Shown here one piece after another: positions 1 to 13,918 of a DNA stretch of 13,918 nucleotides. The notes beneath the pieces were generated by a model, which searched no databases, was not told the origin of the DNA, and saw nothing but the letters and a program-made list of their open reading frames with translations. The stretch is from IMG/VR virus record IMGVR_UViG_2695420480_000007. One strand, 5' to 3'. The stretch's first letter is position 1. Every line of letters begins with the position of its first letter. Source of the DNA: a virus (taxonomy: Duplodnaviria > Heunggongvirae > Uroviricota > Caudoviricetes). Made by a program: the position numbers and the translations under genes.

Positions 1-993
1 TTATGCTAGAGTTGAATATTCTCCATTTCCTCGGTCGGTGAGTGTTAATTCGCGGCCATTTTCTGTAAATGTAATGGCATCCAGCAGGCTTTTTCCTGTT
101 ACAGCTATACCATATCCAAGGTTATCAATCTTTGAACTGTCCTCAGATGATATTGGTATTTGTACAAGCATACCAACAACAAGGCCGTATTTGTTAATTA
201 TAGGGCCACCGCTATTCCCCCCCTTAACCCTAGCATTGAATAATAAAAAGTCTTGTGAATCTAAGTAAGAGTGACCAGAACCAACAATTCGCCCCTTTGA
301 CAGTCGGACAAACGAATTTATATGCGAAACGTCATATAACTTTAATGCATCAAATCCTGGAATGGGTGGAAATCCTATTGATAAAATTTCATCCAGTACC
401 GAGGCTTTGGTTGAGACCTTAAGTGGTTGAATATTATCTTCATTCGGAATGGTTGTGAAAACTAAAGCGATATCAATACGTTCATCGTTAGATACAAAGA
501 TTTTATGTATTGGTAAAGCCTCACCACCAGCTCTAAGTATCCTGATACTCTTCATGTCTTCAATAACATGTCTGGCTGTAAATATCGTGTGGTTATTCCC
601 AACAATAAAACTAGTACCAAGATCATGTGAACCATCACTTTTTTCAACAACAACAGGTAAAACGGAAGGACTAAGGCGGTCTATGATTGACTCAAATCCA
701 TCAGCTATAAAATCATACTTTCCATATTTCGCATCTGATTCATTGAAATTCGGTGCGAAATAGCAACGGTCAAAAAGAGTATGTCCTGAAGACAATTCCA
801 TTAAAATACCTTCAGTTGCTAGCTTTTCACAATTGCGTATTAACTTCATCATATCGAGAGTATTTTCCCACTCAGGTTTGAGACGGGTCAGGCTCTCAAT
901 TGTTTTTCTCTCTTTTACGTTATCGTTTTCCGGTTTGTCATAAAAATATTTCACTATTTCTGTTGGTGTTACATATGTTTTTTTTATAGTCAT
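1..993 (-). CDS. Trypsin-like (S1/chymotrypsin-fold) serine protease with an N-terminal domain of about 115 aa of unknown function
   Basis: Track ORF 1..1047(-) starts at a GTG with no SD; first in-frame ATG is at 993 (MTIKK...) with a weak GGG 7 nt upstream, so 993 is preferred and 1047 is the alternative. Ordered motifs TARHV (His), DIALV (Asp), GNSGGP (Ser) fit an S1 catalytic triad. Stop TAA at 1-3, so the gene is complete in the window. AT-rich. Confidence 0.7.
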   Translation of the reverse strand: MTIKKTYVTPTEIVKYFYDKPENDNVKERKTIESLTRLKPEWENTLDMMKLIRNCEKLATEGILMELSSGHTLFDRCYFAPNFNESDAKYGKYDFIADGFESIIDRLSPSVLPVVVEKSDGSHDLGTSFIVGNNHTIFTARHVIEDMKSIRILRAGGEALPIHKIFVSNDERIDIALVFTTIPNEDNIQPLKVSTKASVLDEILSIGFPPIPGFDALKLYDVSHINSFVRLSKGRIVGSGHSYLDSQDFLLFNARVKGGNSGGPIINKYGLVVGMLVQIPISSEDSSKIDNLGYGIAVTGKSLLDAITFTENGRELTLTDRGNGEYSTLA

Positions 994-1410
994 TTTTGTA
1001 CCCGCGATGACGTTATTCCATATATTTTTCTTTGTAGAAAATATCACTATTGCTGGTAAATGTTAAGTTCAGTGCTCGCACTAAAGCTGGATGATCAACG
1101 TCGCCCTCGTATGGAAATCAGGTAAGATTCATGTCTACTTGGGGTCTAGGGTAGACAGCATAAAAACGTACAATAGCGTTCGATTGGCTCTCACCCCCGC
1201 CTATAAACCATGAGGTTGATAGGGTAGTATCGTTAGGCAATAGTATACATGTAAGTATCCAACCTAATTGGTCTTGAGATTTCTAACTAACGTGTCGTTA
1301 TGTCCGCTTTTGGCACATAGCAGCCCCAGAGACAGTGGTGTAAAGTCATGGAGGGTCGGTGGGAGGATATTCAGTTTCATTCATGCCGAAATACGGTAAA
1401 ATCTATAATA

Positions 1411-1514
1411 GATGGAAATCATTCAATACTCGCACTATCGAAAGTCCACCATCCAGCCGCAGCAAGTTCTTGCATACGACGTGTCAGCGGGTTCAACTCC
1501 CGCCAGCTCCACCA
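1411..1514 (+). repeat. Copy 1 of a paralogous non-coding element of about 80 nt; its last 28 nt (1487..1514) match the tmRNA (ssrA) 3' end including a GGTTCAANTCC T-loop and CCA
   Basis: Ungapped alignment of 1411..1490 against 4081..4160 gives 68/80 identities. 1487..1514 = gcgggttcaactcccgccagctccacca, which I recall as the 3' terminus of E. coli tmRNA (from memory, not searched). Confidence 0.5.
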
Positions 1515-1639
1515 ATCATGATTGGACGGTGTAAGGACAACACCAACAAAAACAGGATGTTAGCAGTCTCAGCAGGACACCGACCAGACGGTGAGGAGAC
1601 AAAAAAGGATACGCAAAGGAGCCGCAGCTCCCGAGTGAT

Positions 1640-1669
1640 AAAAAAGCCCGCTTATGCGGGCTTTTTTTT
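1640..1669. terminator. Bidirectional intrinsic terminator
   Basis: aaaaaa-GCCCGC-ttat-GCGGGC-tttttttt: 6-bp GC stem, 4-nt loop, A-run 5' and T-run 3', so it reads as a terminator on both strands. It lies 10 bp past the Bro-N stop on the minus strand. Confidence 0.65.
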
Positions 1670-1678
1670 CCCTCAAGC

Positions 1679-2440
1679 TCACTGACGTGTTCTTGCCTCA
1701 ACTACTTTCTGGTATATAGCGATAGCTTCATCAACCAAAGCTAATGGATAGCAAGAATTTATATTCAATCCGGAGGGGCACTTAATTCTTTCTGCTCCAC
1801 GTTCACTACGCAATTTTTCACACCATTGCCAAAGCTCCTCAACCGAATAGGTATCCAAACCTAACTCCATCAATCGTTGAGGAACACTTCTGAACTGAGA
1901 CAAATCTCTTAAACTTTCTAACGAGTTAACTTTTAGTTCAACTTGGTTTACTCTACTTTCTAACTCTTCACGTTTTTCTATTTCCATTACCAATGCTTGA
2001 ACCGTCTGCTGCAGACTGTTAGCAAAAGCACTCAGTTCTGAACGTTCTTGCTTAGGTGGCGGAGGATATACACCAAATTCACGAATAGACGGAAGGACCT
2101 GATGAAAAAGCCAGCGTTGGAATTTTTTCCCCGCAGCAGTAGTATCCTGAGCAAGTACTCTATATAGACCTGGTTCAGTAAGAAATACCTCAGAGATAGT
2201 TTCACCATCCACGACAAGAGAAACATTCCTAAACTCATCTGGATCTAAAGTTTTTATTACCGCTCTTATTACAGTGAGCAAGCTTTGAGAAGTCTTTCCA
2301 TCCAGTTTTCTGTTCTCAGCAGAAAGCGTTCTTAGCACATCTGAAAGTGAAACAAAAATCTGCCCTTTTTCATTCATGCTACGGATATAATTTTCTCCAC
2401 ACTCTCCTTCGTAGCATAATTGTAACAAATTCTTTTGCAC
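1679..2440 (-). CDS. Bro-N domain protein (phage antirepressor-like) with coiled-coil middle and C-terminal domain
   Basis: 253-aa ORF. N-terminal region (…IFVSLSDVLRTL…EPGLYRVLAQDTTAAGKKFQRWLFHQVLPSIREFG) has the Bro-N pattern. GTG start at 2440 preceded by AAGGAGGGG with 7-nt spacing; the nearby ATG is out of frame. Confidence 0.65.
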   Translation of the reverse strand: MQKNLLQLCYEGECGENYIRSMNEKGQIFVSLSDVLRTLSAENRKLDGKTSQSLLTVIRAVIKTLDPDEFRNVSLVVDGETISEVFLTEPGLYRVLAQDTTAAGKKFQRWLFHQVLPSIREFGVYPPPPKQERSELSAFANSLQQTVQALVMEIEKREELESRVNQVELKVNSLESLRDLSQFRSVPQRLMELGLDTYSVEELWQWCEKLRSERGAERIKCPSGLNINSCYPLALVDEAIAIYQKVVEARTRQ

Positions 2441-2463
2441 GCCATCCCCTCCTTTTTTTATGG

Positions 2464-2491
2464 ATTATACATCCTATAAACATGTTGTCAC
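2464..2491 (-). promoter_or_regulatory. Putative sigma70 promoter for the Bro-N gene
   Basis: On the minus strand: -35 GTGACA (plus 2486..2491), 16-nt spacer, -10 TATAAT (plus 2464..2469), followed by the SD and GTG start. Confidence 0.4.
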
Positions 2492-2718
2492 CGAAAGGGA
2501 AAAGCATAAACCCAATTTATGTTCCACAAGATGTTCAAAAATCAAACAACCATATAGCTGAGGAGCACAAAAGAGCAAAAGTTTACCAACCCCATATATC
2601 CATACAGCACATAAAATTGACACTACATATGGTATTTTTTAAGTTACGCCTTGCACCATTTCATGATTTTATGTAGATTGTCATCACACGCTGAGATTAA
2701 AAAATTCTACAATTTTTG

Positions 2719-2747
2719 TTGATCTTGAGTTTGGTTTTTAGTATAAG
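2719..2747 (+). promoter_or_regulatory. Putative sigma70 promoter for the XRE/ImmA operon
   Basis: -35 TTGATC (2719..2724), 17-nt spacer, -10 TATAAG (2742..2747), then SD AGGAGG (2762..2767) and ATG at 2774. Confidence 0.45.
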
Positions 2748-2773
2748 TGAGCATGGATTGTAGGAGGCGCAAC

Positions 2774-3124
2774 ATGGTAACTAGCTTTGGTAAGACTCTC
2801 AGAAAAATGAGAATAGACCGGGGTATGGTGCTCAAAAATATGGCTGATCTGTTAGGCGTTAGTTCGGCTTACTTATCCGCCATTGAATTAGGCAAAAGAG
2901 CTATACCGGACTCATTAGTAAATACGATTGCAACAACTTTTGAGCTTAGCGGACAAGACATCATCAATCTCAAGAAACAGGCAGAGATTTCTCAACCGTC
3001 CATTAAGGTTGATATGTCGGATGCAAATGAGCAGAACAAAGAACTAATGCTTGTTTTTGCTCGTAAATTTAAGGACCTGAGTCCAGAGCAACTCGATAAG
3101 CTTAATAAAATGTTAAAGGACTGA
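2774..3124 (+). CDS. XRE-family (Cro/CI-type) helix-turn-helix transcriptional regulator
   Basis: Track ORF 2747..3124; the likely start is ATG 2774, 6 nt after a perfect AGGAGG. HTH signature FGKTLRKMRIDRGMVLKNMADLLGVSSAYLSAIELGKR. Confidence 0.8.
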   Translation: MVTSFGKTLRKMRIDRGMVLKNMADLLGVSSAYLSAIELGKRAIPDSLVNTIATTFELSGQDIINLKKQAEISQPSIKVDMSDANEQNKELMLVFARKFKDLSPEQLDKLNKMLKD

Positions 3125-3127
3125 ATA

Positions 3128-3661
3128 ATGATTGCGAAACGAGAACTTGGCCATCGCGTTTCACCTCTCAGCACCAGCATGATTAAATCATACGCTCATC
3201 GTCTGAGAGACGTTCTTCAGATATCAAATCACACATATCTGAGACTGGATGTATTACTAGAAGGTCTTATGGCCTCAGAAAGCATTGAGCTAGAAATTGT
3301 TGAAGATCATGAACTGCCCAAACGCTATGCAGTGACTTATCCAGATAAGAACAAAATTGTTTTACAGCGATCTGTTTACGATGCAGTGTGCAATGGTGAG
3401 AACCATGCGAGATTCACTGTTGCGCATGAACTTGGTCATTTAGTCATGCATCGCAATCAAAGTATCTATGCACGTAATAAGACTAGTGGAGGGCATAAAA
3501 TCTATGAAGACAGCGAATGGCAAGCAGATGTTTTTGCAAGCCACTTCTTAATTGACTCAAGACTAGTTTTGCCCACAATGACTGTTGAAGATATAAGCAA
3601 AACATTTGGTGTCAGTCAACAAGCGGCTGAAACTTGGATGAGAAAAAATGCAAAAAGATAA
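3128..3661 (+). CDS. ImmA/IrrE-family (COG2856-like) zinc metallopeptidase
   Basis: 177-aa ORF starting 4 nt after the XRE stop (operonic). HEXXH motif in FTVAHELGHLVMH with downstream SEWQADVFASHFL, typical of ImmA/IrrE anti-repressor proteases. Confidence 0.8.
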   Translation: MIAKRELGHRVSPLSTSMIKSYAHRLRDVLQISNHTYLRLDVLLEGLMASESIELEIVEDHELPKRYAVTYPDKNKIVLQRSVYDAVCNGENHARFTVAHELGHLVMHRNQSIYARNKTSGGHKIYEDSEWQADVFASHFLIDSRLVLPTMTVEDISKTFGVSQQAAETWMRKNAKR

Positions 3662-3668
3662 CGAAAAA

Positions 3669-3691
3669 GCCAGCGAACCGCTGTCGCTGGC
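3669..3691 (+). other. Hairpin just after the ImmA stop; possible weak terminator or protein-binding palindrome
   Basis: GCCAGCG-aaccgctgt-CGCTGGC: 7-bp stem, 9-nt loop, but no clear T-run after it. Confidence 0.3.
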
Positions 3692-3786
3692 TTCTCCTAT
3701 CGTAAGCAAATACGAAAAACTTGGCGGTTGTGAGTATACGCTTACCTTAGGTTTTGTCAACAGCGAAACTTTACAGGTAACACGAT

Positions 3787-3930
3787 ATGACCATTGAAAA
3801 AGCTGTATCTGAGGAATACATCACAATTTACCGTCCTTTTATTACGGTCAAAGGTAAACGGATCTTTGCTCGTCAAAAAGGCTTGGCAGCCTTTCCTATC
3901 AAAATTCCTGCCTCTAAGTATCGAGGATAA
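3787..3930 (+). CDS. Small hypothetical basic protein (47 aa), possible micro-gene
   Basis: ATG directly after an in-frame stop (3778..3780); weak AGGT 9 nt upstream; followed by a terminator hairpin. Below the ORF-track length cutoff. No recognisable domain. Confidence 0.25.
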   Translation: MTIEKAVSEEYITIYRPFITVKGKRIFARQKGLAAFPIKIPASKYRG

Positions 3931-3944
3931 TCTTTGCTAATCTT

Positions 3945-3970
3945 AGGCCCTTTTCTAGGGCCTTTTATTA
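3945..3970 (+). terminator. Intrinsic terminator-like hairpin
   Basis: AGGCCC-ttttcta-GGGCCT followed by TTTTATT. Confidence 0.4.
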
Positions 3971-4079
3971 CACTTCTGTTACGCGCACCACAGATAGAGT
4001 TTCAGCTAAAACTTTTGTTCATACCTAGGAGTCTGCTGACGAGTGGTTTGTTCACTAATAAACACGTAAAAACGGTAAC

Positions 4080-4165
4080 GGCTGGACATCATTCAATATT
4101 CGCACTATTGGAAGTTCACCAGCCAGCCACAGCACGTTCTTGCATACAACGTGCCTGCGGTTTTT
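4080..4165 (+). repeat. Copy 2 of the paralogous element of about 80 nt
   Basis: 85% ungapped identity to 1411..1490. Flanking stem GGCTGG (4080..4085) / CCAGCC (4119..4124) corresponds to GATGG/CCATC in copy 1, which is one compensatory A-T to C-G change. Confidence 0.5.
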
Positions 4166-4255
4166 GAGACCGGTCCGATCATCAAACGAAACATAAAATT
4201 AGCTCACACTATGAGGAAAAGTATCTTTTTTTACTATGTAAATTCAAAGGATTAG

Positions 4256-5125
<870 letters not shown>

Positions 5126-5147
5126 GTCTTTAAGTGATAAGCATAAA

Positions 5148-5186
5148 CCGCAGCACGATCTTCTTGCATACGACGTGCTACGGTTT
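5148..5186 (+). repeat. Copy 3 (shortened) of the paralogous element, between the GIY-YIG stop and the invertase stop
   Basis: ccgcagcacgatcttcttgcatacgacgtgctacggttt aligns with the core of copies 1 and 2. It contains a potential 6-bp stem AGCACG/CGTGCT. A mirrored copy lies at 8275..8313 inside the inverted duplication. Confidence 0.45.
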
Positions 5187-5740
5187 CATTTATCTCCGAC
5201 CGGAAACTTCTTATACAGTGTCGATATACCAACATCATAGATGATCGCCACCTTCTGGCGAGGAACGCCTGATGCAATTAATCGCCCGGCCTGCGCCCAT
5301 TGTTCTGGTGTAAGTTTGGGACGACGTCCCCCAATTCGTCCCTGTGCGCGAGCAGCTTCCAGTCCAGCTTTTGTTCGTTCAACAATCAGTTCTCGTTCCA
5401 TTTCAGCCAAGGCACCCATCACATGAAAGAAAAAACGCCCCATCGGTGTGCTGGTATCAATAGCATCCGTCAGGCTGCGAAAATTAACGCCACGTTCGCG
5501 CAACTCCTCAACCAGAATGACCAGATGCCGCATACTACGCCCCAGCCGATCCAGCTTCCAGACAACCAGAGTGTCACCTGCCGATAATGTCCTGAGCAGT
5601 TTTTTCAGTCCCGGCCTTTCGGACTTTGTACCGCTTATCTTGTCTTCAAAAATAAGCTCGCATCCTGCACAGTTCAGCGCATTACGTTGTAGATCTGTGT
5701 TCTGGTCATTTGTTGATACGCGTACATAGCCAATAAGCAT
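5186..5740 (-). CDS. Serine recombinase, DNA invertase of the Pin/Gin/Hin/Cin (Din) family, copy 1
   Basis: Track ORF 5186..5776; the likely start is the internal Met giving MLIGYVRVSTNDQ… (184 aa, the Din-invertase length), with catalytic-Ser region YVRVST and a C-terminal HTH. 100% identical to copy 2. Confidence 0.85.
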   Translation of the reverse strand: MLIGYVRVSTNDQNTDLQRNALNCAGCELIFEDKISGTKSERPGLKKLLRTLSAGDTLVVWKLDRLGRSMRHLVILVEELRERGVNFRSLTDAIDTSTPMGRFFFHVMGALAEMERELIVERTKAGLEAARAQGRIGGRRPKLTPEQWAQAGRLIASGVPRQKVAIIYDVGISTLYKKFPVGDK

Positions 5741-5794
5741 GGTAGATCCCCCTGACAAAAGCAGGAATGATGCCATTTGCTCGTTATTTCTGCA

Positions 5795-5820
5795 TTTTCA
5801 TAAATGTTGGTTTGGGAGAA
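5795..5820. other. 26-bp Din-invertase crossover site (hix/gix-like), site 1
   Basis: TTTTCATAAATG-TT-GGTTTGGGAGAA; the inner half-site is the reverse complement of TTCTCCCAAACC. Exact inverted copy of site 2; the duplication boundary falls at its central dinucleotide. Confidence 0.5.
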
Positions 5821-6288
5821 GGTTCGGCATTACCCGTTGGTGTGCCTGTTCCGTGGCCTTCCGCCACTCCGCCAACAGGCTGGCTGAAATGCAACGGCGC
5901 GGCTTTCTCTGCTGAAGAATACCCGGAACTGGCAAAGGCTTATCCAACAAATAAATTACCTGATTTACGCGGTGAGTTTATTCGTGGCTGGGATGACGGG
6001 CGCGGTATTGATGCAGGACGTGTTTTATTGAGTATTCAGGCCGGAATGCTGGAAAAGCACCGTCATCCTGTTGTCGCCAACGATGGGTATGACTCAAAAG
6101 AGGAATGGGAACTGGCGACAATCTTCAGAAGAGCATATACGCAAGGCAGGGGGCTTGATGCTGCCGCTGCCGGAGGGAGTCTGATCCCATCACCGACACT
6201 TCATTCACGAGGGAGTATCGGTAATACTGGCGGGAGTGAAACCCGTCCACGAAATATTGCATTTAACTTTATCGTGAGGGCTGCATAA
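5809..6288 (+). CDS. Silent tail-fibre C-terminal variable cassette (Sv'), start-less in the current orientation
   Basis: Track ORF 5767..6288; its first 18 aa are read-through across the crossover site. The cassette (…GWLKCNGAAFSAEEYPELAKAYP…LPDLRGEFIRGWDDGRGID…) resembles Mu/P1/e14-type fibre C-terminal domains. Its stop overlaps the tfa' start (TAATG). Confidence 0.6.
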   Translation, partial: GLGEGSALPVGVPVPWPSATPPTGWLKCNGAAFSAEEYPELAKAYPTNKLPDLRGEFIRGWDDGRGIDAGRVLLSIQAGMLEKHRHPVVANDGYDSKEEWELATIFRRAYTQGRGLDAAAAGGSLIPSPTLHSRGSIGNTGGSETRPRNIAFNFIVRAA

Positions 6289-6890
6289 TGGATAACGCCG
6301 TATTAAATAGCGAGCTTATTGCCACGAAGGCGGGGAATATTACCGTCTATAACTATGATGGTGAAACTCGGGAATATATGTCTACTTCAAATGAATATCT
6401 TGCCATTGGTGTCGGTATCCCTGCATATTCCTGTTTAGATGCCCCTGGCACACATAAGGCGGGTTATGCTATCTGCCGTTCGATTGATTTAAACTCATGG
6501 GAATATGTGCCAGACCATCGCGGTGAAATCGTCTATAACACCGAAACGAGAGACGCCAAAGAAATCACAGCTCCGGGTGATTATCCTGAAAATACAACCA
6601 CTATCGCCCCGTTAACGCCATACGATAAATGGGATGGTAAGAAATGGGTGACCGATACTGAGGCACAGCATAGCGCCGCAGTAGAAGCGGCAGAAGCACA
6701 GCGCCAGTTGCTGATTGATGCTGCTATGGCTTCCATCAGTCTGATTCAGCTGAAATTGCAGGCCGGGCGGAAGCTGACGCAGGCAGAAATCACCCGCCTT
6801 AACGCTGTACTGGATTACATTGACGCGGTGACGGCAACAAATACCAGCACAGCGCCGGATGTCATCTGGCCTGAATTGCCGGAGGCGTAG
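6288..6890 (+). CDS. Tail fibre assembly protein (Tfa', 200 aa; U'-like)
   Basis: 200-aa ORF translationally coupled to Sv'; Tfa-like composition and C-terminus. Converges on and overlaps the opposite-strand tfa by 29 nt, as in Mu G and e14 P segments. Confidence 0.75.
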   Translation: MDNAVLNSELIATKAGNITVYNYDGETREYMSTSNEYLAIGVGIPAYSCLDAPGTHKAGYAICRSIDLNSWEYVPDHRGEIVYNTETRDAKEITAPGDYPENTTTIAPLTPYDKWDGKKWVTDTEAQHSAAVEAAEAQRQLLIDAAMASISLIQLKLQAGRKLTQAEITRLNAVLDYIDAVTATNTSTAPDVIWPELPEA

Positions 6891-7293
6891 GCCATTCAAT
6901 ATCTGGATCACTGGAGGTATCAATCAGTTCCAGTGCGTCCAGATAATCCAGCCACAGATTATATTGCGCCAGTTCCTCGCCTTTCAGACGACCAATAGCG
7001 GCTTTACCGGGCCATTGCTTACTGTTCATGTATTCGTTGGCCTGATTAACTAATCGCTGTTTATTTGATTCAGCGATTGTGATTAATTCTTCGCTGGTAA
7101 GTGGTGGCGCATCCTGCCATATTGGAAAACCATTTTTATCTGAACCAAGTATTTTACCATCAGGCCATGCAACTCCTGCGAACTCAGAATAAATAGTAAA
7201 GTTTATTTTCGTAGCGTTCTCAGGAATGGTTTGGCTATCTGGTGAAATATAAAACCCCGAATCAGAGGGATTAAAATAATATGTCTTTTCCAT
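6862..7293 (-). CDS. Tail fibre assembly protein (Tfa, 143 aa; U-like), copy A
   Basis: 143-aa ORF, identical to 8700..9131. ATG 2 nt after the stop of the upstream Sv cassette. Confidence 0.75.
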   Translation of the reverse strand: MEKTYYFNPSDSGFYISPDSQTIPENATKINFTIYSEFAGVAWPDGKILGSDKNGFPIWQDAPPLTSEELITIAESNKQRLVNQANEYMNSKQWPGKAAIGRLKGEELAQYNLWLDYLDALELIDTSSDPDIEWPTPPAIQAR

Positions 7294-7295
7294 AG

Positions 7296-7653
7296 TTAAT
7301 ACCCCACAGCCATCCAGTAAATTGAATTTGTTGTAGCAGAAGTGTAAGTAAATCTGATTTTAGTTCTGTTGGTACTTCCAATATCAAAGCCCACAGAACG
7401 GGCAGAAGGATCATTAGTTGAAATAAGAGCATTTACCGAACGACAAGCCGCAGGGAAAGCTACAGGTAATGTTATATCAACTGTTCCAACACTTCCTCCG
7501 GTTGGTGAGACAGAAAAACTCCCCCATTGAATAATCATCCCCCCAGGTAATTTCTGGTATCCATTGGCGGTCAATGAGTTACCAAAGCTGTTCATATCCG
7601 GTACCTGATTTTCTCCTGTCCCCACATTCCTTTTTGCTGCTTCTCCCAAACCA
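7296..7653 (-). CDS. Tail-fibre variable cassette Sv, duplicate copy not fused to a constant region (silent)
   Basis: Track ORF 7296..7694; identical to the C-terminal 118 aa of the stf gene at 9134..9781. Here the sequence upstream of the site is the invertase leader, not the fibre constant region. Confidence 0.6.
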
Positions 7654-7666
7654 ACATTTATGAAAA
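7641..7666. other. 26-bp Din-invertase crossover site, site 2
   Basis: TTCTCCCAAACC-AA-CATTTATGAAAA. The left half plus central AA (7641..7654) is identical to site 3 (9479..9492); the right half is identical to the outer half of site 1. Confidence 0.5.
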
Positions 7667-7720
7667 TGCAGAAATAACGAGCAAATGGCATCATTCCTGC
7701 TTTTGTCAGGGGGATCTACC

Positions 7721-8275
7721 ATGCTTATTGGCTATGTACGCGTATCAACAAATGACCAGAACACAGATCTACAACGTAATGCGCTGAACTGTGCAGGATG
7801 CGAGCTTATTTTTGAAGACAAGATAAGCGGTACAAAGTCCGAAAGGCCGGGACTGAAAAAACTGCTCAGGACATTATCGGCAGGTGACACTCTGGTTGTC
7901 TGGAAGCTGGATCGGCTGGGGCGTAGTATGCGGCATCTGGTCATTCTGGTTGAGGAGTTGCGCGAACGTGGCGTTAATTTTCGCAGCCTGACGGATGCTA
8001 TTGATACCAGCACACCGATGGGGCGTTTTTTCTTTCATGTGATGGGTGCCTTGGCTGAAATGGAACGAGAACTGATTGTTGAACGAACAAAAGCTGGACT
8101 GGAAGCTGCTCGCGCACAGGGACGAATTGGGGGACGTCGTCCCAAACTTACACCAGAACAATGGGCGCAGGCCGGGCGATTAATTGCATCAGGCGTTCCT
8201 CGCCAGAAGGTGGCGATCATCTATGATGTTGGTATATCGACACTGTATAAGAAGTTTCCGGTCGGAGATAAATGA
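7721..8275 (+). CDS. Serine recombinase, DNA invertase of the Pin/Gin/Hin/Cin family, copy 2
   Basis: Track ORF 7685..8275; ATG 7721 preceded by AGGGGG 8 nt upstream. Identical to copy 1 in inverted orientation. Confidence 0.85.
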   Translation: MLIGYVRVSTNDQNTDLQRNALNCAGCELIFEDKISGTKSERPGLKKLLRTLSAGDTLVVWKLDRLGRSMRHLVILVEELRERGVNFRSLTDAIDTSTPMGRFFFHVMGALAEMERELIVERTKAGLEAARAQGRIGGRRPKLTPEQWAQAGRLIASGVPRQKVAIIYDVGISTLYKKFPVGDK

Positions 8276-8313
8276 AACCGTAGCACGTCGTATGCAAGAA
8301 GATCGTGCTGCGG
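8275..8313 (-). repeat. Inverted copy of element copy 3
   Basis: Reverse complement of 5148..5186, lying within the 985-bp inverted duplication. Confidence 0.45.
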
Positions 8314-8335
8314 TTTATGCTTATCACTTAAAGAC

Positions 8336-8625
8336 TCAAAAATCAGGTGAGTAACGGACCGGGGACATAGCTCCTTTTTTTCTTAATTCATCTGGTATTT
8401 TTTTTCCAAGATAAAGATTTGCTATTTCAGGTGGGGCTTCTCGACCTTCAAAACCATAGCGAGAACTTTGTGTTGCCTCAAAGTCCGGATCCTCGTCCCA
8501 GTATTTCATCGTAGGGAAATTTTCACGTGTTGATTTGAGCCATTTATCAGCAATGAAAACCCCTCGAACGATCCCCCTTACAGTAGCAAGAATGACTTCT
8601 GCTTGGCTGGCGCGAGAGACATTAA
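8336..8625 (-). pseudogene. 3' fragment of the GIY-YIG gene (codons 180..274), inverted duplicate
   Basis: Reverse complement of 4836..5125, exact. Track ORF 8336..8761 is a chimera of this with antisense tfa sequence. Confidence 0.7.
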
Positions 8626-8728
8626 AATCACCCGCCTTAACGCTGTACTGGATTACATTGACGCGGTGACGGCAACAAATACCAGCACAGCGCCGGATGT
8701 CATCTGGCCTGAATTGCCGGAGGCGTAG
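8625..8728 (+). pseudogene. 3' fragment of tfa' (direct duplicate of 6787..6890)
   Basis: Identical to the end of the 200-aa tfa' gene but lacks its 5' 500 bp; begins at the non-site junction at 8625. Confidence 0.6.
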
Positions 8729-9131
8729 GCCATTCAATATCTGGATCACTGGAGGTATCAATCAGTTCCAGTGCGTCCAGATAATCCAGCCACAGATTAT
8801 ATTGCGCCAGTTCCTCGCCTTTCAGACGACCAATAGCGGCTTTACCGGGCCATTGCTTACTGTTCATGTATTCGTTGGCCTGATTAACTAATCGCTGTTT
8901 ATTTGATTCAGCGATTGTGATTAATTCTTCGCTGGTAAGTGGTGGCGCATCCTGCCATATTGGAAAACCATTTTTATCTGAACCAAGTATTTTACCATCA
9001 GGCCATGCAACTCCTGCGAACTCAGAATAAATAGTAAAGTTTATTTTCGTAGCGTTCTCAGGAATGGTTTGGCTATCTGGTGAAATATAAAACCCCGAAT
9101 CAGAGGGATTAAAATAATATGTCTTTTCCAT
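8700..9131 (-). CDS. Tail fibre assembly protein (Tfa, 143 aa), copy B, cognate to the expressed fibre
   Basis: Identical to 6862..7293; directly downstream of the stf gene. Confidence 0.8.
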
Positions 9132-11070: not shown

Positions 11071-11420
11071 TGGAGCCATACAGCCTCACACTCGATGAGG
11101 CCTGTCATTTTCTCAAGATATCCAGACCGACTGCCATTAACTGGATACGCACAGGGCGTCTTCAGGCAACACGCAAAGATCCCACTAAGAATAAATCTCC
11201 TTACCTCACAACACGACAAGCCTGCATTGCGGCTCTTCAGTCTCCGCTGCATACTGTCCAGGTGAGCGCGGGTGATGGCATAACAGAGGAAAGAAAATGT
11301 CACTCTTCCGCAGAGGTGAAATATGGTACGCCAGTTTCACATTGCCGAACGGTAAAAGATTTAAACAGTCTCTTGGAACAAAGGACAAAAGGCAGGCGAC
11401 AGAACTCCATGACAAGCTAA
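11070..11420 (+). CDS. xis: Excisionase (Xis), P22-like, 116 aa
   Basis: Internal start of track ORF 10986..11420; ATG 11070 preceded by GAGGTG. DNA-binding motif [26 protein letters not shown]. Overlaps int by 124 nt in another frame. Confidence 0.65.
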
Positions 11421-12460
11421 AGGCTGAAGCATGGCGGGTCAGCAAACTTGGTGAAATACCTGATATAACGTTCGAGGAAGCGTGTGTCAGGTGGCTTGAA
11501 GAGAAAGCACATAAAAAATCACTGGACGATGACAAAAGCCGGATCGGATTCTGGCTTCAACATTTCGCAGGAATGCAACTAAGAGACATTACTGAATCAA
11601 AAATTTATTCAGCAATGCAGAAAATGACGAACCGGCGTCATGAGGAAAACTGGAAACTCAGGGCAGAAGCATGCAGAAAAAAAGGGAAACCTGTTCCAGA
11701 ATACACGCCAAAACCAGCGTCCGTTGCAACGAAGGCTACGCATCTTTCATTTATAAAGGCCCTACTAAGAGCCGCAGAGCGTGAATGGAAAATGCTGGAT
11801 AAGGCACCAATTATTAAAGTGCCTCAACCAAAGAATAAACGGATCCGCTGGCTGGAGCCCCATGAAGCACAAAGGCTGATTGATGAATGTCCGGAGCCAT
11901 TAAAGTCTGTTGTTGAATTTGCACTGGCAACAGGCTTAAGACGCTCGAACATCATCAACCTTGAATGGCAACAAATAGATATGCAGCGCCGGGTGGCATG
12001 GATAAACCCGGAAGAGAGTAAATCAAACCGCGCAATTGGCGTTGCGCTGAATGATACTGCATGTCGCGTATTGAAAAAACAAATCGGGAATCATCACCGT
12101 TGGGTATTTGTGTACAAGGAAAGCTGTACCAAACCAGACGGAACGAAAGCGCCAACAGTAAGGAAGATGCGGTATGACGCAAACACAGCCTGGAAAGCGG
12201 CGCTGAGACGGGCTGGTATTGATGATTTCAGATTTCACGACTTGAGACACACCTGGGCAAGTTGGCTGGTTCAAGCCGGAGTCCCGTTGTCAGTGTTACA
12301 GGAAATGGGAGGCTGGGAGTCTATCGAAATGGTTCGTCGATATGCTCACCTTGCACCTAATCACCTTACCGAACACGCACGGCAAATAGACTCGATCCTG
12401 AACCCATCGGTCCCAAATTTGTCCCAGTCAAAAAATAAGGAAGGTACTAATGATGTGTAA
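11297..12460 (+). CDS. int: Tyrosine site-specific integrase, P22/thrW-targeting family
   Basis: 387-aa ORF with SD GAGGA. N-terminus [47 protein letters not shown] matches my recollection of P22 Int; C-terminal catalytic region has R…HDLRHT…Y. Ends 14 bp from the thrW 3' end. Confidence 0.9.
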
Positions 12461-12474
12461 CTTATTGATTTAAA

Positions 12475-12550
12475 TGGTGCCGATAATAGGAGTCGAACCT
12501 ACGACCTTCGCATTACGAATGCGCTGCTCTACCAACTGAGCTATATCGGC
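12475..12550 (-). tRNA. thrW: tRNA-Thr (anticodon CGU)
   Basis: Reverse complement gives a 76-nt tRNA: GCCGATATAGCTCAGTTGGTAGAGCAGCGCATTCGTAATGCG…GGTTCGACTCC…CACCA, with anticodon loop tTCGTaa, T-loop and encoded CCA. Adjacent to proA as in E. coli/Salmonella. Confidence 0.9.
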
Positions 12551-12664: not shown

Positions 12665-13918
12665 TTACGCACGAATGGTGTAATCACCAATGCCGATCCA
12701 CTTGTAAGTGGTCAGTGCTTCCAGCCCCATTGGGCCACGCGCGTGGAGTTTTTGTGTGCTTACCGCCACTTCCGCACCCAGACCAAACTGGCCGCCGTCG
12801 GTAAAACGCGTAGAGGCGTTAACGTAAACAGCGGACGAATCCACTTCGTTAACAAAACGCTGGGCGTTGCGCATATCGCGGGTCAGGATCGCATCGGAGT
12901 GTTGTGTGCCGTGTTCACGAATATGGGCGATGGCATCGTCAAGATCGCTGACGATTTTGACGTTCAAATCTAATGACAGAAACTCATCGTCATACTCTTC
13001 GGCTTTAACAGCAACCACCTTCGCAGGGCCTGCCTGCAACTGCGCCAGTGCAGCTGCATCTGCGTGTAATGTCACGCCGCTTTCCGCCATTTGTTTGCTT
13101 AATGCGGGCAGGAAGCTATCGGCGATGTTTTTATTCACCAGCAACGTTTCAACCGTATTACATGTGCTCGGACGCTGAGTTTTCGCGTTGACGATCACTT
13201 TTAATGCTTCAGCGATCTCTACACTTTCATCAACGTAAATATGGCATACGCCTATACCACCTGTGATCACCGGGATTGTCGACTGTTCACGGCACAGTTT
13301 ATGCAAACCAGCGCCACCACGCGGGATCAGCATGTCGATGTATTTATCCATACGCAGCATTTCACTGACCAGCGCACGGTCAGGATTATCAATCGCCTGC
13401 ACGGCACCCGCCGGTAAGCCGCAGGATTTCAGGGCGTCCTGAATCACCGCCACCGTTGCAGCGTTAGTGCGACACGTTTCTTTGCCACCGCGCAGGATCA
13501 CCGCATTACCGGTTTTCAGGCACAGCGAAGCGACATCAACCGTCACGTTCGGGCGCGCTTCATAAATCACGCCAATAACCCCCAGCGGTACGCGACGACG
13601 CTCAAGACGCAGGCCGCTGTCCAGTACGCCGCCATCGATTACCTGCCCCACCGGATCGGCGAGGTTGCACACCTGACGTACATCGTCGGCAATGCCTTTC
13701 AGCCGTGCGGGCGTCAGTGCCAGACGGTCAAGCATCGCTTCGCTAAGGCCATTGGCTCGCGCGTCAGCAACATCCTGGGCGTTAGCGTTGAGGATGATTT
13801 CGCTTTGTGCTTCCAGTTCATCGGCGATTTTTTCCAGCACGCGATTTTTTTCGCGGCTGGAGAGTTGCGCTAATTTATACGAGGCTTGCTTCGCGGCAAT
13901 GCCCATTTGTTCCAGCAT
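12665..13918 (-). CDS. proA: Gamma-glutamyl phosphate reductase (glutamate-5-semialdehyde dehydrogenase)
   Basis: 417-aa ORF matching E. coli ProA as I recall it ([21 protein letters not shown]…); the start codon is the last three bases of the window. Confidence 0.95.

Follow-up and report, generated by a model that had tools for sequence, protein, structure and literature searches.

Genes for an XRE-family helix-turn-helix (HTH) repressor, followed on the same strand by a gene for a COG2856/M78 peptidase of about 170 aa with a HEXXH motif, are known from ICEBs1 of Bacillus subtilis (ImmR/ImmA) and from related phage pairs. In the CapH/CapP pair associated with CBASS (antiphage signalling based on cyclic oligonucleotides) and in DdrO/IrrE of Deinococcus, an HTH repressor that is cleaved by a protease answers DNA damage, and both CapP and IrrE sense single-stranded DNA (ssDNA) in a groove formed by the peptidase and C-terminal GAF domains, with a cysteine-switch loop in CapP (10.64898/2026.05.16.725639). 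An XRE HTH and an M78 peptidase are also linked to a third, small and poorly characterised component in RosmerTA (RmrA) and PD-lambda-2, and pairs of Xre and COG2856 genes were predicted by Makarova et al. to regulate "a still unknown third component" (PMC2701414). Here, such a pair is described from a 13,918-nt stretch of viral DNA (Caudoviricetes; IMG/VR record IMGVR_UViG_2695420480_000007; hereafter the window), in which it is followed by a predicted antisense RNA and a gene for a 47-aa protein. These four parts are interpreted, with a confidence slightly better than even, as a self-contained prophage accessory cassette in which a switch of the ImmR/ImmA type would gate a small effector. 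The small open reading frame (ORF) is a concrete candidate for the third component of Xre-COG2856 pairs in this subfamily. No specific description of the XRE/ImmA/small-ORF triad or of the small protein was found in the literature.

Neighbourhoods were gathered for ImmA homologues from 87% down to approximately 30% identity, and roughly 200 related loci were compared. The window sequence is E. coli DNA and stands as the E. coli copy in cross-species comparisons. The cassette model rests on the genes present, on statistics of their linkage, on promoter, operator and terminator signals that are conserved, and on selection for coding. The Bro-N, XRE and ImmA genes all lie where the first-pass annotation of this DNA had placed them, with the divergent layout that it described; RefSeq already names the three genes likewise, and the annotated trio is in itself ordinary.

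The XRE gene (2774-3124, + strand) encodes 116 aa and matched Pfam HTH_19, HTH_31 and HTH_3, all above the cut-offs. Its mechanically called ORF spans 2747-3124; the real start is the ATG at 2774, which follows an AGGAGG at 2762-2767 and agrees with the RefSeq call and with every homologue. Between the XRE stop codon (3122-3124) and the ATG of the ImmA gene (3128-3661, + strand) there is a gap of 3 nt, which makes tight coupling of the two genes plausible, as had been proposed in the form of a translational link. The 177-aa ImmA is an ImmA/IrrE-type (M78) zinc metallopeptidase (PF06114, E = 2.8e-11) with an intact HELGH motif, and H100, E101 and H104, together with E130 (in "EDSEWQA"), were invariant in 30 homologues. 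The HEXXH peptidase assignment of the first-pass annotation was thus confirmed, and its reading of both genes as an ImmR/ImmA-type repressor/protease pair is supported (same strand, M78 family, intact HEXXH).

The best PADLOC matches of the pair were capH for XRE (E = 1.2e-10, aligned over the full profile length) and capP for ImmA (5e-15). PADLOC profiles for RmrA also matched XRE and ImmA, each in part only; in RosmerTA and PD-lambda-2 the domains are fused, whereas here they are encoded by two genes, and the toxin partners are unrelated. The AlphaFold2 model of ImmA (pLDDT 90) had IrrE and CapP as top Foldseek matches, with the query covered and the targets covered in part (TMq 0.51 versus TMt 0.35); ImmA aligned only to residues 81-181 of the 291-aa CapP structure 7t5t. 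The resemblance to CapH/CapP and DdrO/IrrE accordingly lies in the best profile and fold matches of both proteins, and the difference lies in architecture, as ImmA consists of a peptidase and a short helical C-terminus and, unlike CapP, has no GAF domain. XRE is the probable autorepressor and the probable substrate of ImmA. In an alignment of 58 distinct XRE sequences, a C-terminal "FAR" motif (residues ~95-100) was near-invariant and was followed by an amphipathic helix; this motif is a candidate site of ImmA cleavage or of dimerisation.

The spacer between the Bro-N and XRE genes (2441-2773) measures 333 bp and has a GC content of 35%, compared with 46% for the window, in keeping with the AT-rich region of about 330 bp noted in the first pass. 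Two promoters are predicted in it, a leftward GTGACA-16-TATAAT (11/12) and a rightward TTGATC-17-TATAAG. The rightward promoter, P_xre (2719-2747, + strand), has its -35 at 2719-2724 and, after a 17-bp spacer, its -10 at 2742-2747; it escapes the promoter scanner, as its -10 does not end in T. In a six-species alignment of the region upstream of XRE, the pattern TTGA../TATAA. was found at equal spacing in E. coli, Salmonella, phage LLS, Edwardsiella and Serratia, and TAGACA/TATAAA was its counterpart in Providencia. The -35 of P_xre is overlain by a candidate operator, O1 (2705-2723), a palindrome of the form TTCTACA-N5-TGTTGAT that was kept in all six species and whose symmetry survives changes in both arms (TTCAACA..TGTTGAA in Serratia, TCTACA..TGTAGA in Providencia). 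The exact O1 pattern was also present upstream of XRE in the viral loci L105, L106, L109 (twice) and L112, the ImmA proteins of which are 37-39% identical. As for ICEBs1 ImmR/ImmA, a palindrome over the pair's own promoter suggests autoregulation. A weaker operator-like copy, O2 (2660-2678), lies 45 bp from O1 with three mismatches to the palindrome, and its half-site TGTAGA was partly conserved in the same alignment. The four palindrome matches found in the window are not significant by their number alone, which was reached in 14 of 200 shuffles, and the search returned no operator copy near the Bro-N promoter (P_bro) or the downstream PD-T4-3 gene.

The perfect TTGACA at 2617-2622, to which the first-pass annotation had drawn attention, is present as a sequence but has no acceptable -10, and the promoter scan lists nothing there; it was therefore rejected as a promoter. 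It falls within a conserved inverted repeat, CCATATAT..ACATATGG (2593-2632), which forms the left edge of the sequence common to loci that do not have Bro-N. The sequence held in common with these loci stops near 2590, and from there to P_bro the DNA differs in length and sequence, even between E. coli, Salmonella and LLS.

The proposed output of the switch is a conserved basic beta-protein of 47 aa (MTIEKAVSEEYITIYRPFITVKGKRIFARQKGLAAFPIKIPASKYRG) encoded at 3787-3930 (+ strand). In a tblastn survey its ORF followed ImmA in nearly all loci, and in Edwardsiella it was better conserved than ImmA (85% versus 73%). By an iterative profile search of six-frame ORFs it was detected in 76 loci, always on the ImmA strand and at a median of about 120 nt downstream, in hosts ranging from Gammaproteobacteria to Clostridia, Synergistota, Spirochaetes and Rickettsiales. 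Counting was also restricted to loci in which ImmA matched its subfamily in full length and was followed by 500 nt of sequence or more; the small ORF was present in 47 of 61 of these, compared with 7 of 84 loci with other M78 subfamilies. XRE and ImmA were its sole constant partners, and among the cargo genes that had been suggested for the switch the "small ORF" is the component that travels with the pair. Differences between E. coli and Salmonella gather at third codon positions (26 of 37), and the same excess was seen relative to phage LLS, Edwardsiella, Serratia and the viral contig L103, which marks the small ORF as a real protein-coding gene. The other small ORF beside the switch, an annotated 49-aa frame at 3648-3797 (+ strand), is frameshifted in phage LLS and Edwardsiella and has no third-position bias in its substitutions; it is probably no protein gene, though it may be translated as a leader. 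That this second of the two annotated small ORFs lacks signs of coding had been overlooked in the first pass. The operon likely ends at a terminator-like hairpin with a T-tract (3945-3963, + strand) directly 3' of the small ORF, and hairpins were found at the equivalent place in Salmonella, LLS and Edwardsiella.

A profile search for the small-protein family returned 1519 database proteins, and 1123 clusters at 50% identity. Among the best 120 and 150 matches, members were 33-91 aa long with a single-stretch profile match, and those with any name were called hypothetical. Domain fusions were considered as a hint to function and were set aside, since the longer members (70-91 aa) have N- or C-terminal extensions only. 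No family of known function was matched by the small protein in Pfam (E ≤ 10), PADLOC (models for RosmerTA and other systems alike) or NCBIfam, while PHROG 33859 and 4533, the function of which is not annotated, matched some family members. The consensus is IFRPYIT-K-GKRIYA-x-YG-KAF-I-V, with a core motif that was unchanged across lambdoid, P2-like, Mu-like and Firmicute phages, and AlphaFold2 predicts, with confidence (pLDDT 84), a small beta-sheet plus a single short helix.

Between ImmA and the small ORF, in the DNA of the 49-aa frame, a convergent antisense transcription unit is predicted, which had gone unnoticed in the first pass. Its promoter (TTGACA-16-TATACT, 3760-3733, - strand; 11/12 match) would give rise to a cis-antisense RNA of about 70 nt (3726-3653, - strand), the ends of which we infer, with a terminator hairpin at 3697-3663 and a U-tract. 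This RNA would be complementary to the ImmA-to-small-ORF spacer and has a predicted folding free energy of -26.8 kcal/mol (z = -3.6). It matched no Rfam family; in a scan of the whole window at E ≤ 1, the only hit was the 3' end of tmRNA (17 nt at 1487-1503), with nothing at 3650-3760. The stretch between ImmA and the small ORF is the best-conserved DNA of the locus, as 97 of 98 nt at 3663-3760 are identical between E. coli and Salmonella, including 34 of 34 positions of the antisense promoter, whereas the adjacent coding DNA is 74% identical. In other loci the same layout has been rebuilt from unrelated sequence: in Providencia (TTGACG-17-TATATT, 10/12, with a differing hairpin that was seen in the alignment and is unlisted by the terminator scan), in Rheinheimera (a perfect TTGACA-16-TATAAT, 12/12), and in a Clostridiales locus (L214), where the antisense layout and the small ORF occur without ImmA upstream.

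Strand counts were taken over 61 non-redundant spacers. The best promoter reached at least 10/12 on the minus strand in 23 spacers and on the plus strand in 1 (dinucleotide shuffles 2.4 ± 1.7, maximum 9), and at least 9/12 in 45 and 5, respectively (shuffles 14.5 ± 3.0, maximum 22). Terminator-like hairpins were present on the minus strand in 41 of the 61 spacers, mostly within 20 nt of the ImmA stop codon, and on the plus strand in 9. This strand asymmetry, together with the re-creation of the signals with different sequence, argues for a real convergent transcription unit.

The XRE and ImmA pair moves as a unit among lambdoid, P2-like and Mu-like prophages, and its neighbours change. The cassette was found at the end of a P2-like prophage in Salmonella, followed by genes for an S24 peptidase and DinI; in the nin/Q region of lambdoid prophages in Serratia and Providencia; between Mor and the lysis genes of Mu-like phages in Rheinheimera and a metagenomic contig; and next to a restriction-modification system and a PIN toxin pair in Marinimicrobium. 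Around 53 non-redundant cassettes there was no constant neighbour, the flanking ORFs belonging to about 30 unrelated Pfam families per side, with integrases as the most frequent class. Such variable moron positions with unrelated neighbours speak against control of the excision, transfer or lytic genes of its element by the cassette. In the cultured temperate phage LLS, a 76%-identical copy of the module lies between attP (annotated "tmRNA pseudogene") and the invertase and tail-fibre genes, 7 kb from the phage's own CI/Cro/cII region; because LLS has this separate CI/Cro, the pair is not the main immunity switch of the prophage. The earlier suggestion that the pair is no prophage-induction switch is borne out by this arrangement. 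Its companion statement, that no lytic or replication genes sit nearby, is correct locally, but tail-fibre and invertase genes start about 1.5 kb away. Unlike ICEBs1 ImmR/ImmA, the cassette is thus movable, is not placed at a lysogeny/lysis or transfer switch, is not followed by a same-strand int, and is accompanied by two things that ICEBs1 lacks, the conserved small ORF and the antisense unit predicted here.

Two of these neighbourhoods hold further genes beside the cassette. In Salmonella (L004-L009, ~6855-7565), the S24 gene encodes a short UmuD/LexA-like peptidase on the opposite strand and is followed by dinI, which gives the variable region there another group of genes related to DNA damage. 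In the Mu-like prophage of Rheinheimera (L016/L017, 6887-7854), a gene with a SocA/Panacea domain and an ORF of 148 aa come after the cassette; the two may be a toxin-antitoxin pair and form a further case of accessory cargo stacked beside the cassette.

The proposed working of the cassette is as follows. Dimers of XRE would bind the palindrome over their own -35 and keep the operon low. A signal, by analogy with ImmA, IrrE and CapP most likely DNA damage or phage infection, would let ImmA cleave XRE; the operon transcript would then rise, and would have to exceed the constitutive antisense RNA, which would set a threshold, before the small protein could be translated. The small protein would be the output. 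Double control, a basic fold rich in beta-hairpins and a sequence conserved across phyla together suggest a potent and probably growth-arresting effector whose target is universal, for example a nucleic acid or a core protein of the host. The Bro-N and PD-T4-3 genes would be neighbours with their own promoters, gathered in the same variable region adjacent to the attachment (att) site. In the SOS-induced type I loci symE/symR, tisB/istR-1 and dinQ/agrB of E. coli, the translation of a small protein is held back by a constitutive antisense or overlapping RNA, much as is proposed here; these loci are controlled by LexA and most of their toxins are hydrophobic membrane peptides, whereas the cassette has an XRE/ImmA pair and a basic protein. 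The wider proposal, that the four-part module is an unrecognised, phylum-spanning class of prophage-borne systems whose effector arrests the host or aborts infection upon damage or superinfection, is put forward tentatively, at somewhat less than an even chance.

Several observations weigh against this interpretation. No small ORF was detectable in 14 of the 61 full-length loci. By prediction the antisense RNA begins some 60 nt upstream of the small ORF's start codon and leaves the ribosome-binding site of this ORF uncovered, and the counts of loci overstate the number of independent events because the loci are phylogenetically related. The small protein is soluble and basic, in contrast to the hydrophobic peptides of classic type I toxins, and its AlphaFold2 model had no fold match. 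The trigger cannot be transferred from CapP or IrrE, because the 177-aa ImmA has no ssDNA-sensing GAF domain. Finally, the Veillonella locus described below could point to a looser functional link of Bro-N with the cassette.

Among the other explanations, the one that survives best, and that is nonetheless considered unlikely, takes the cassette as a module like immunity I of phage P22 (mnt, arc, sar, ant). The small protein would then be an antirepressor, freed by cleavage of XRE, that inactivates a prophage repressor, which would give LexA-independent induction or cross-talk between prophages. The order of repressor, convergent antisense promoter and effector does match P22 immunity I, in which a repressor-controlled operon has a small convergent antisense RNA upstream of its effector and which likewise lies in a variable "moron" region in the late/tail part of a temperate phage genome (PMC2629481). 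The cassette is also found in an att-proximal variable region with dinI remnants on either side, and its Salmonella copy adjoins the S24 peptidase and DinI. The SOS-controlled antirepressors of Salmonella Gifsy prophages are encoded beside dinI homologues. The P22 repressors, however, are of the Arc/MetJ type and have no protease, the P22 effector is a large antirepressor, and sar overlaps the ribosome-binding site of ant. The small protein has no similarity to known antirepressors, and its core motif is the same in phages with unrelated repressors, which favours a universal target over a cognate repressor.

It is also rather improbable that the small protein acts within the switch itself, for instance by inhibiting or activating ImmA or by assisting XRE as a co-factor, with XRE-controlled genes elsewhere as the real output, or that the module is an addiction element in which ImmA is the harmful part. 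The lack of any constant partner of the small protein besides XRE and ImmA would fit this explanation, as would the prediction that Xre-COG2856 pairs are toxin-antitoxin-like (PMC2701414) and the antitoxin-like role of Xre-peptidase fusions in RosmerTA and PD-lambda-2 (10.1101/2022.05.11.491447; PMC9519451). The host genomes, however, differ so widely that targets conserved in trans are unlikely; in L214 the small ORF is present with its antisense unit but with no ImmA, and an antisense RNA that sets a threshold is a feature more typical of harmful effectors than of co-factors.

In a model that follows the first-pass annotation, the larger neighbours are the cargo, and a CapH/CapP-like pair would repress Bro-N and/or the GIY-YIG gene (PD-T4-3) and release them upon damage or infection. 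The Bro-N domain gene (1679-2440, - strand) encodes 253 aa and matched PF02498 (E = 2.4e-7, 31.7 bits versus a cut-off of 25.6). No Pfam family, and so no KilAC/ANT effector domain, was matched by residues 120-253, and PHROG families named "anti-repressor Ant" matched residues 59-188. Its promoter P_bro (2464-2491, - strand; GTGACA-16-TATAAT, 11/12) belongs to a pattern, ATGACA-16-TATAAT with a variable spacer, that was invariant in 12 aligned loci, 9 of which do not have the XRE/ImmA pair. In the tblastn survey Bro-N stood alongside the pair only in the E. coli/Salmonella/LLS group, and the nearest upstream ORF had a Bro-N domain in 2 of the 53 non-redundant cassettes. The pair was absent from 17 of 28 viral loci with Bro-N homologues of 66-79% identity, and in one locus (L190) another cassette subtype adjoins Bro-N in the opposite relative orientation. 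Since loci lacking the pair are common and nine of them keep the Bro-N promoter, Bro-N behaves, as far as these comparisons go, as an independent, att-proximal prophage gene. Control of Bro-N by the pair for these reasons finds no support: Bro-N is missing from most loci with the pair, has its own invariant promoter, and has no operator copy near P_bro.

Three further observations concern the Bro-N gene. In a locus from Veillonella, a Negativicute (L212), a Bro-N gene for 172 aa (10-528, - strand) and an XRE-M78-small-ORF cassette are again divergent, on either side of a small HTH_59 gene. Prophages often have Bro-N genes, so this could be chance, or it could be a loose association that recurs. 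In five loci that have no cassette (L191, L192, L198, L202 and L207, ~3900-3960), the Bro-N promoter abuts a sequence that, judged by eye, resembles a tRNA 3' end (GGTCGGCACGAGAGGATTTGAACCTC...). Should this be a piece of an att site, the phage lineage would end on its attachment side with Bro-N, and that place, together with a near-consensus promoter, would suggest expression in lysogens. On the other side of the gene, a hairpin AGCCCGC-TTAT-GCGGGCT with flanking A- and T-tracts (1640-1669), found by inspection and not listed in the terminator scan of 1500-4400, is a likely bidirectional terminator after Bro-N.

The PD-T4-3 gene (4352-5125, + strand) was matched by the PADLOC PD-T4-3 model at E = 2.4e-140, with an alignment that spans positions 1-255 of 256, and by Pfam LEM-3_GIY-YIG in the N-terminal domain of its product. 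PD-T4-3 is CMoRE, a single-component type IV restriction endonuclease against DNA with 5-hydroxymethylcytosine (5hmC) or glucosyl-5hmC (PMC12923530). It was present in 838 of 5426 E. coli genomes, compared with 34 for the XRE/ImmA cassette, so that at least 96% of its E. coli copies occur without the pair, and it is separated from the operon by the terminator-like hairpin at 3945-3963 and a dinI remnant. By these signs PD-T4-3 is an independent neighbour with its own promoter, and the control of a stand-alone enzyme by the pair, as had been suggested for the GIY-YIG gene, was not sustained.

The proximity model is consequently regarded as improbable. In its favour are the PADLOC matches of the pair, which are best to capH and capP, the presence of a validated defence gene 690 bp downstream, a divergent arrangement like that of CapH/CapP loci (10.1101/2022.04.27.489752), and the divergent Bro-N gene of the Veillonella locus. 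Against it stand the unequal genome counts, the single-gene action of PD-T4-3 (PMC12923530), the hairpin and dinI remnant that intervene, the rarity of Bro-N beside cassettes, and its invariant promoter in loci without the pair. In addition, P_bro and the closest operator-like site are separated by about 100 bp of variable DNA, and ImmA has none of the GAF domain of CapP. PD-T4-3, unlike the targets in CapH/CapP loci, shows no sign of dependence on the pair and has no operator copy upstream. Least probable of all is a model with no functional antisense RNA, in which the conserved hairpin attenuates or terminates transcription on the way from ImmA to the small ORF and the minus-strand hexamers are incidental or serve transcriptional interference only; the hairpin would indeed also form in the plus-strand mRNA, whose spacer is structured (z = -2.4), but on that strand it has an A-tract before it and no T-tract after it, and the -35 and -10 are kept or re-created with different sequence in distant loci, in large excess over the other strand and over shuffles.

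The segment that runs from Bro-N to the small ORF is flanked by two copies of a 98-nt direct repeat (1396-1493 and 4066-4163, both + strand; 82% identical), which consist of a remnant of a dinI 3' end and the sequence downstream of it and match the corresponding sequences in Stx and lambdoid phages. A structured RNA was considered for this repeat and rejected (z = -0.01). The first copy runs into a 29-nt ssrA 3' end at 1487-1515, which is an attP-like core, though the present copy is located in an island on the thrW/proA side, with proA at 12665-13918 (- strand), tRNA-Thr at 12475-12550 (- strand) and a tyrosine integrase gene at 11297-12460. The repeats look like recombination scars of cassette exchange. 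Of 5426 complete E. coli genomes, 34 carry the module's 3-kb segment with an identity of at least 97.9%, and many of these copies start exactly at the real ssrA 3' end, at the tail-fibre end of a lambdoid prophage. The surroundings in strain A22 are like those in the window, with a myovirus-type prophage alongside. Sister genomes have the module at the end of complete prophages. These arrangements also show the att-adjacent region of lambdoid prophages that integrate at ssrA to be a hot spot for independent cassettes, in which the XRE/ImmA switch, PD-T4-3, Bro-N and DinI/S24 are shuffled between conserved linker remnants.

Further along the window there is a perfect inverted repeat of 986 nt (4836-5821 and 7640-8625), which carries the 3' end of PD-T4-3, a pin-type invertase gene (5186-5776, - strand, and 7685-8275, + strand) and the start of a tail-fibre gene, as well as a perfect direct repeat of at least 300 nt (6787-7086 and 8625-8924). 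The repeats yield a chimeric ORF (8336-8761, - strand) with the N-terminus of a tail-fibre-assembly protein and the C-terminus of PD-T4-3. Because strain A22 has a single copy of the repeated stretch, the repeats are either a Pin-associated duplication and inversion or an assembly artefact. At the other end of the window, positions 1-1047 (- strand) encode a 348-aa trypsin-like (S1) peptidase (phrog_18002). Its PADLOC hits were weak ones, to protease domains in the effectors of retron, Lamassu and Hachiman systems, with CTD12 of ABC-3C systems matched faintly at the N-terminus, and it may represent a further gene related to defence.

Pairs of XRE and M78 genes are among the commonest unexplained two-gene modules of prophages and defence islands, and their targets are usually guessed from the nearest large gene. 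At this locus, the comparisons favour a tiny ORF and a predicted non-coding RNA instead, both of which are mostly overlooked or mislabelled by annotation pipelines. If the cassette model is true, one large subfamily of these switches would have a defined and easily testable output, and a new small-protein family, with at least 1100 clusters at 50% identity and no Pfam entry, and a new antisense RNA, with no Rfam entry, would be added to the regulators and effectors of phages. It would also be a caution against assigning the role of "regulator of adjacent defence gene" by proximity alone.

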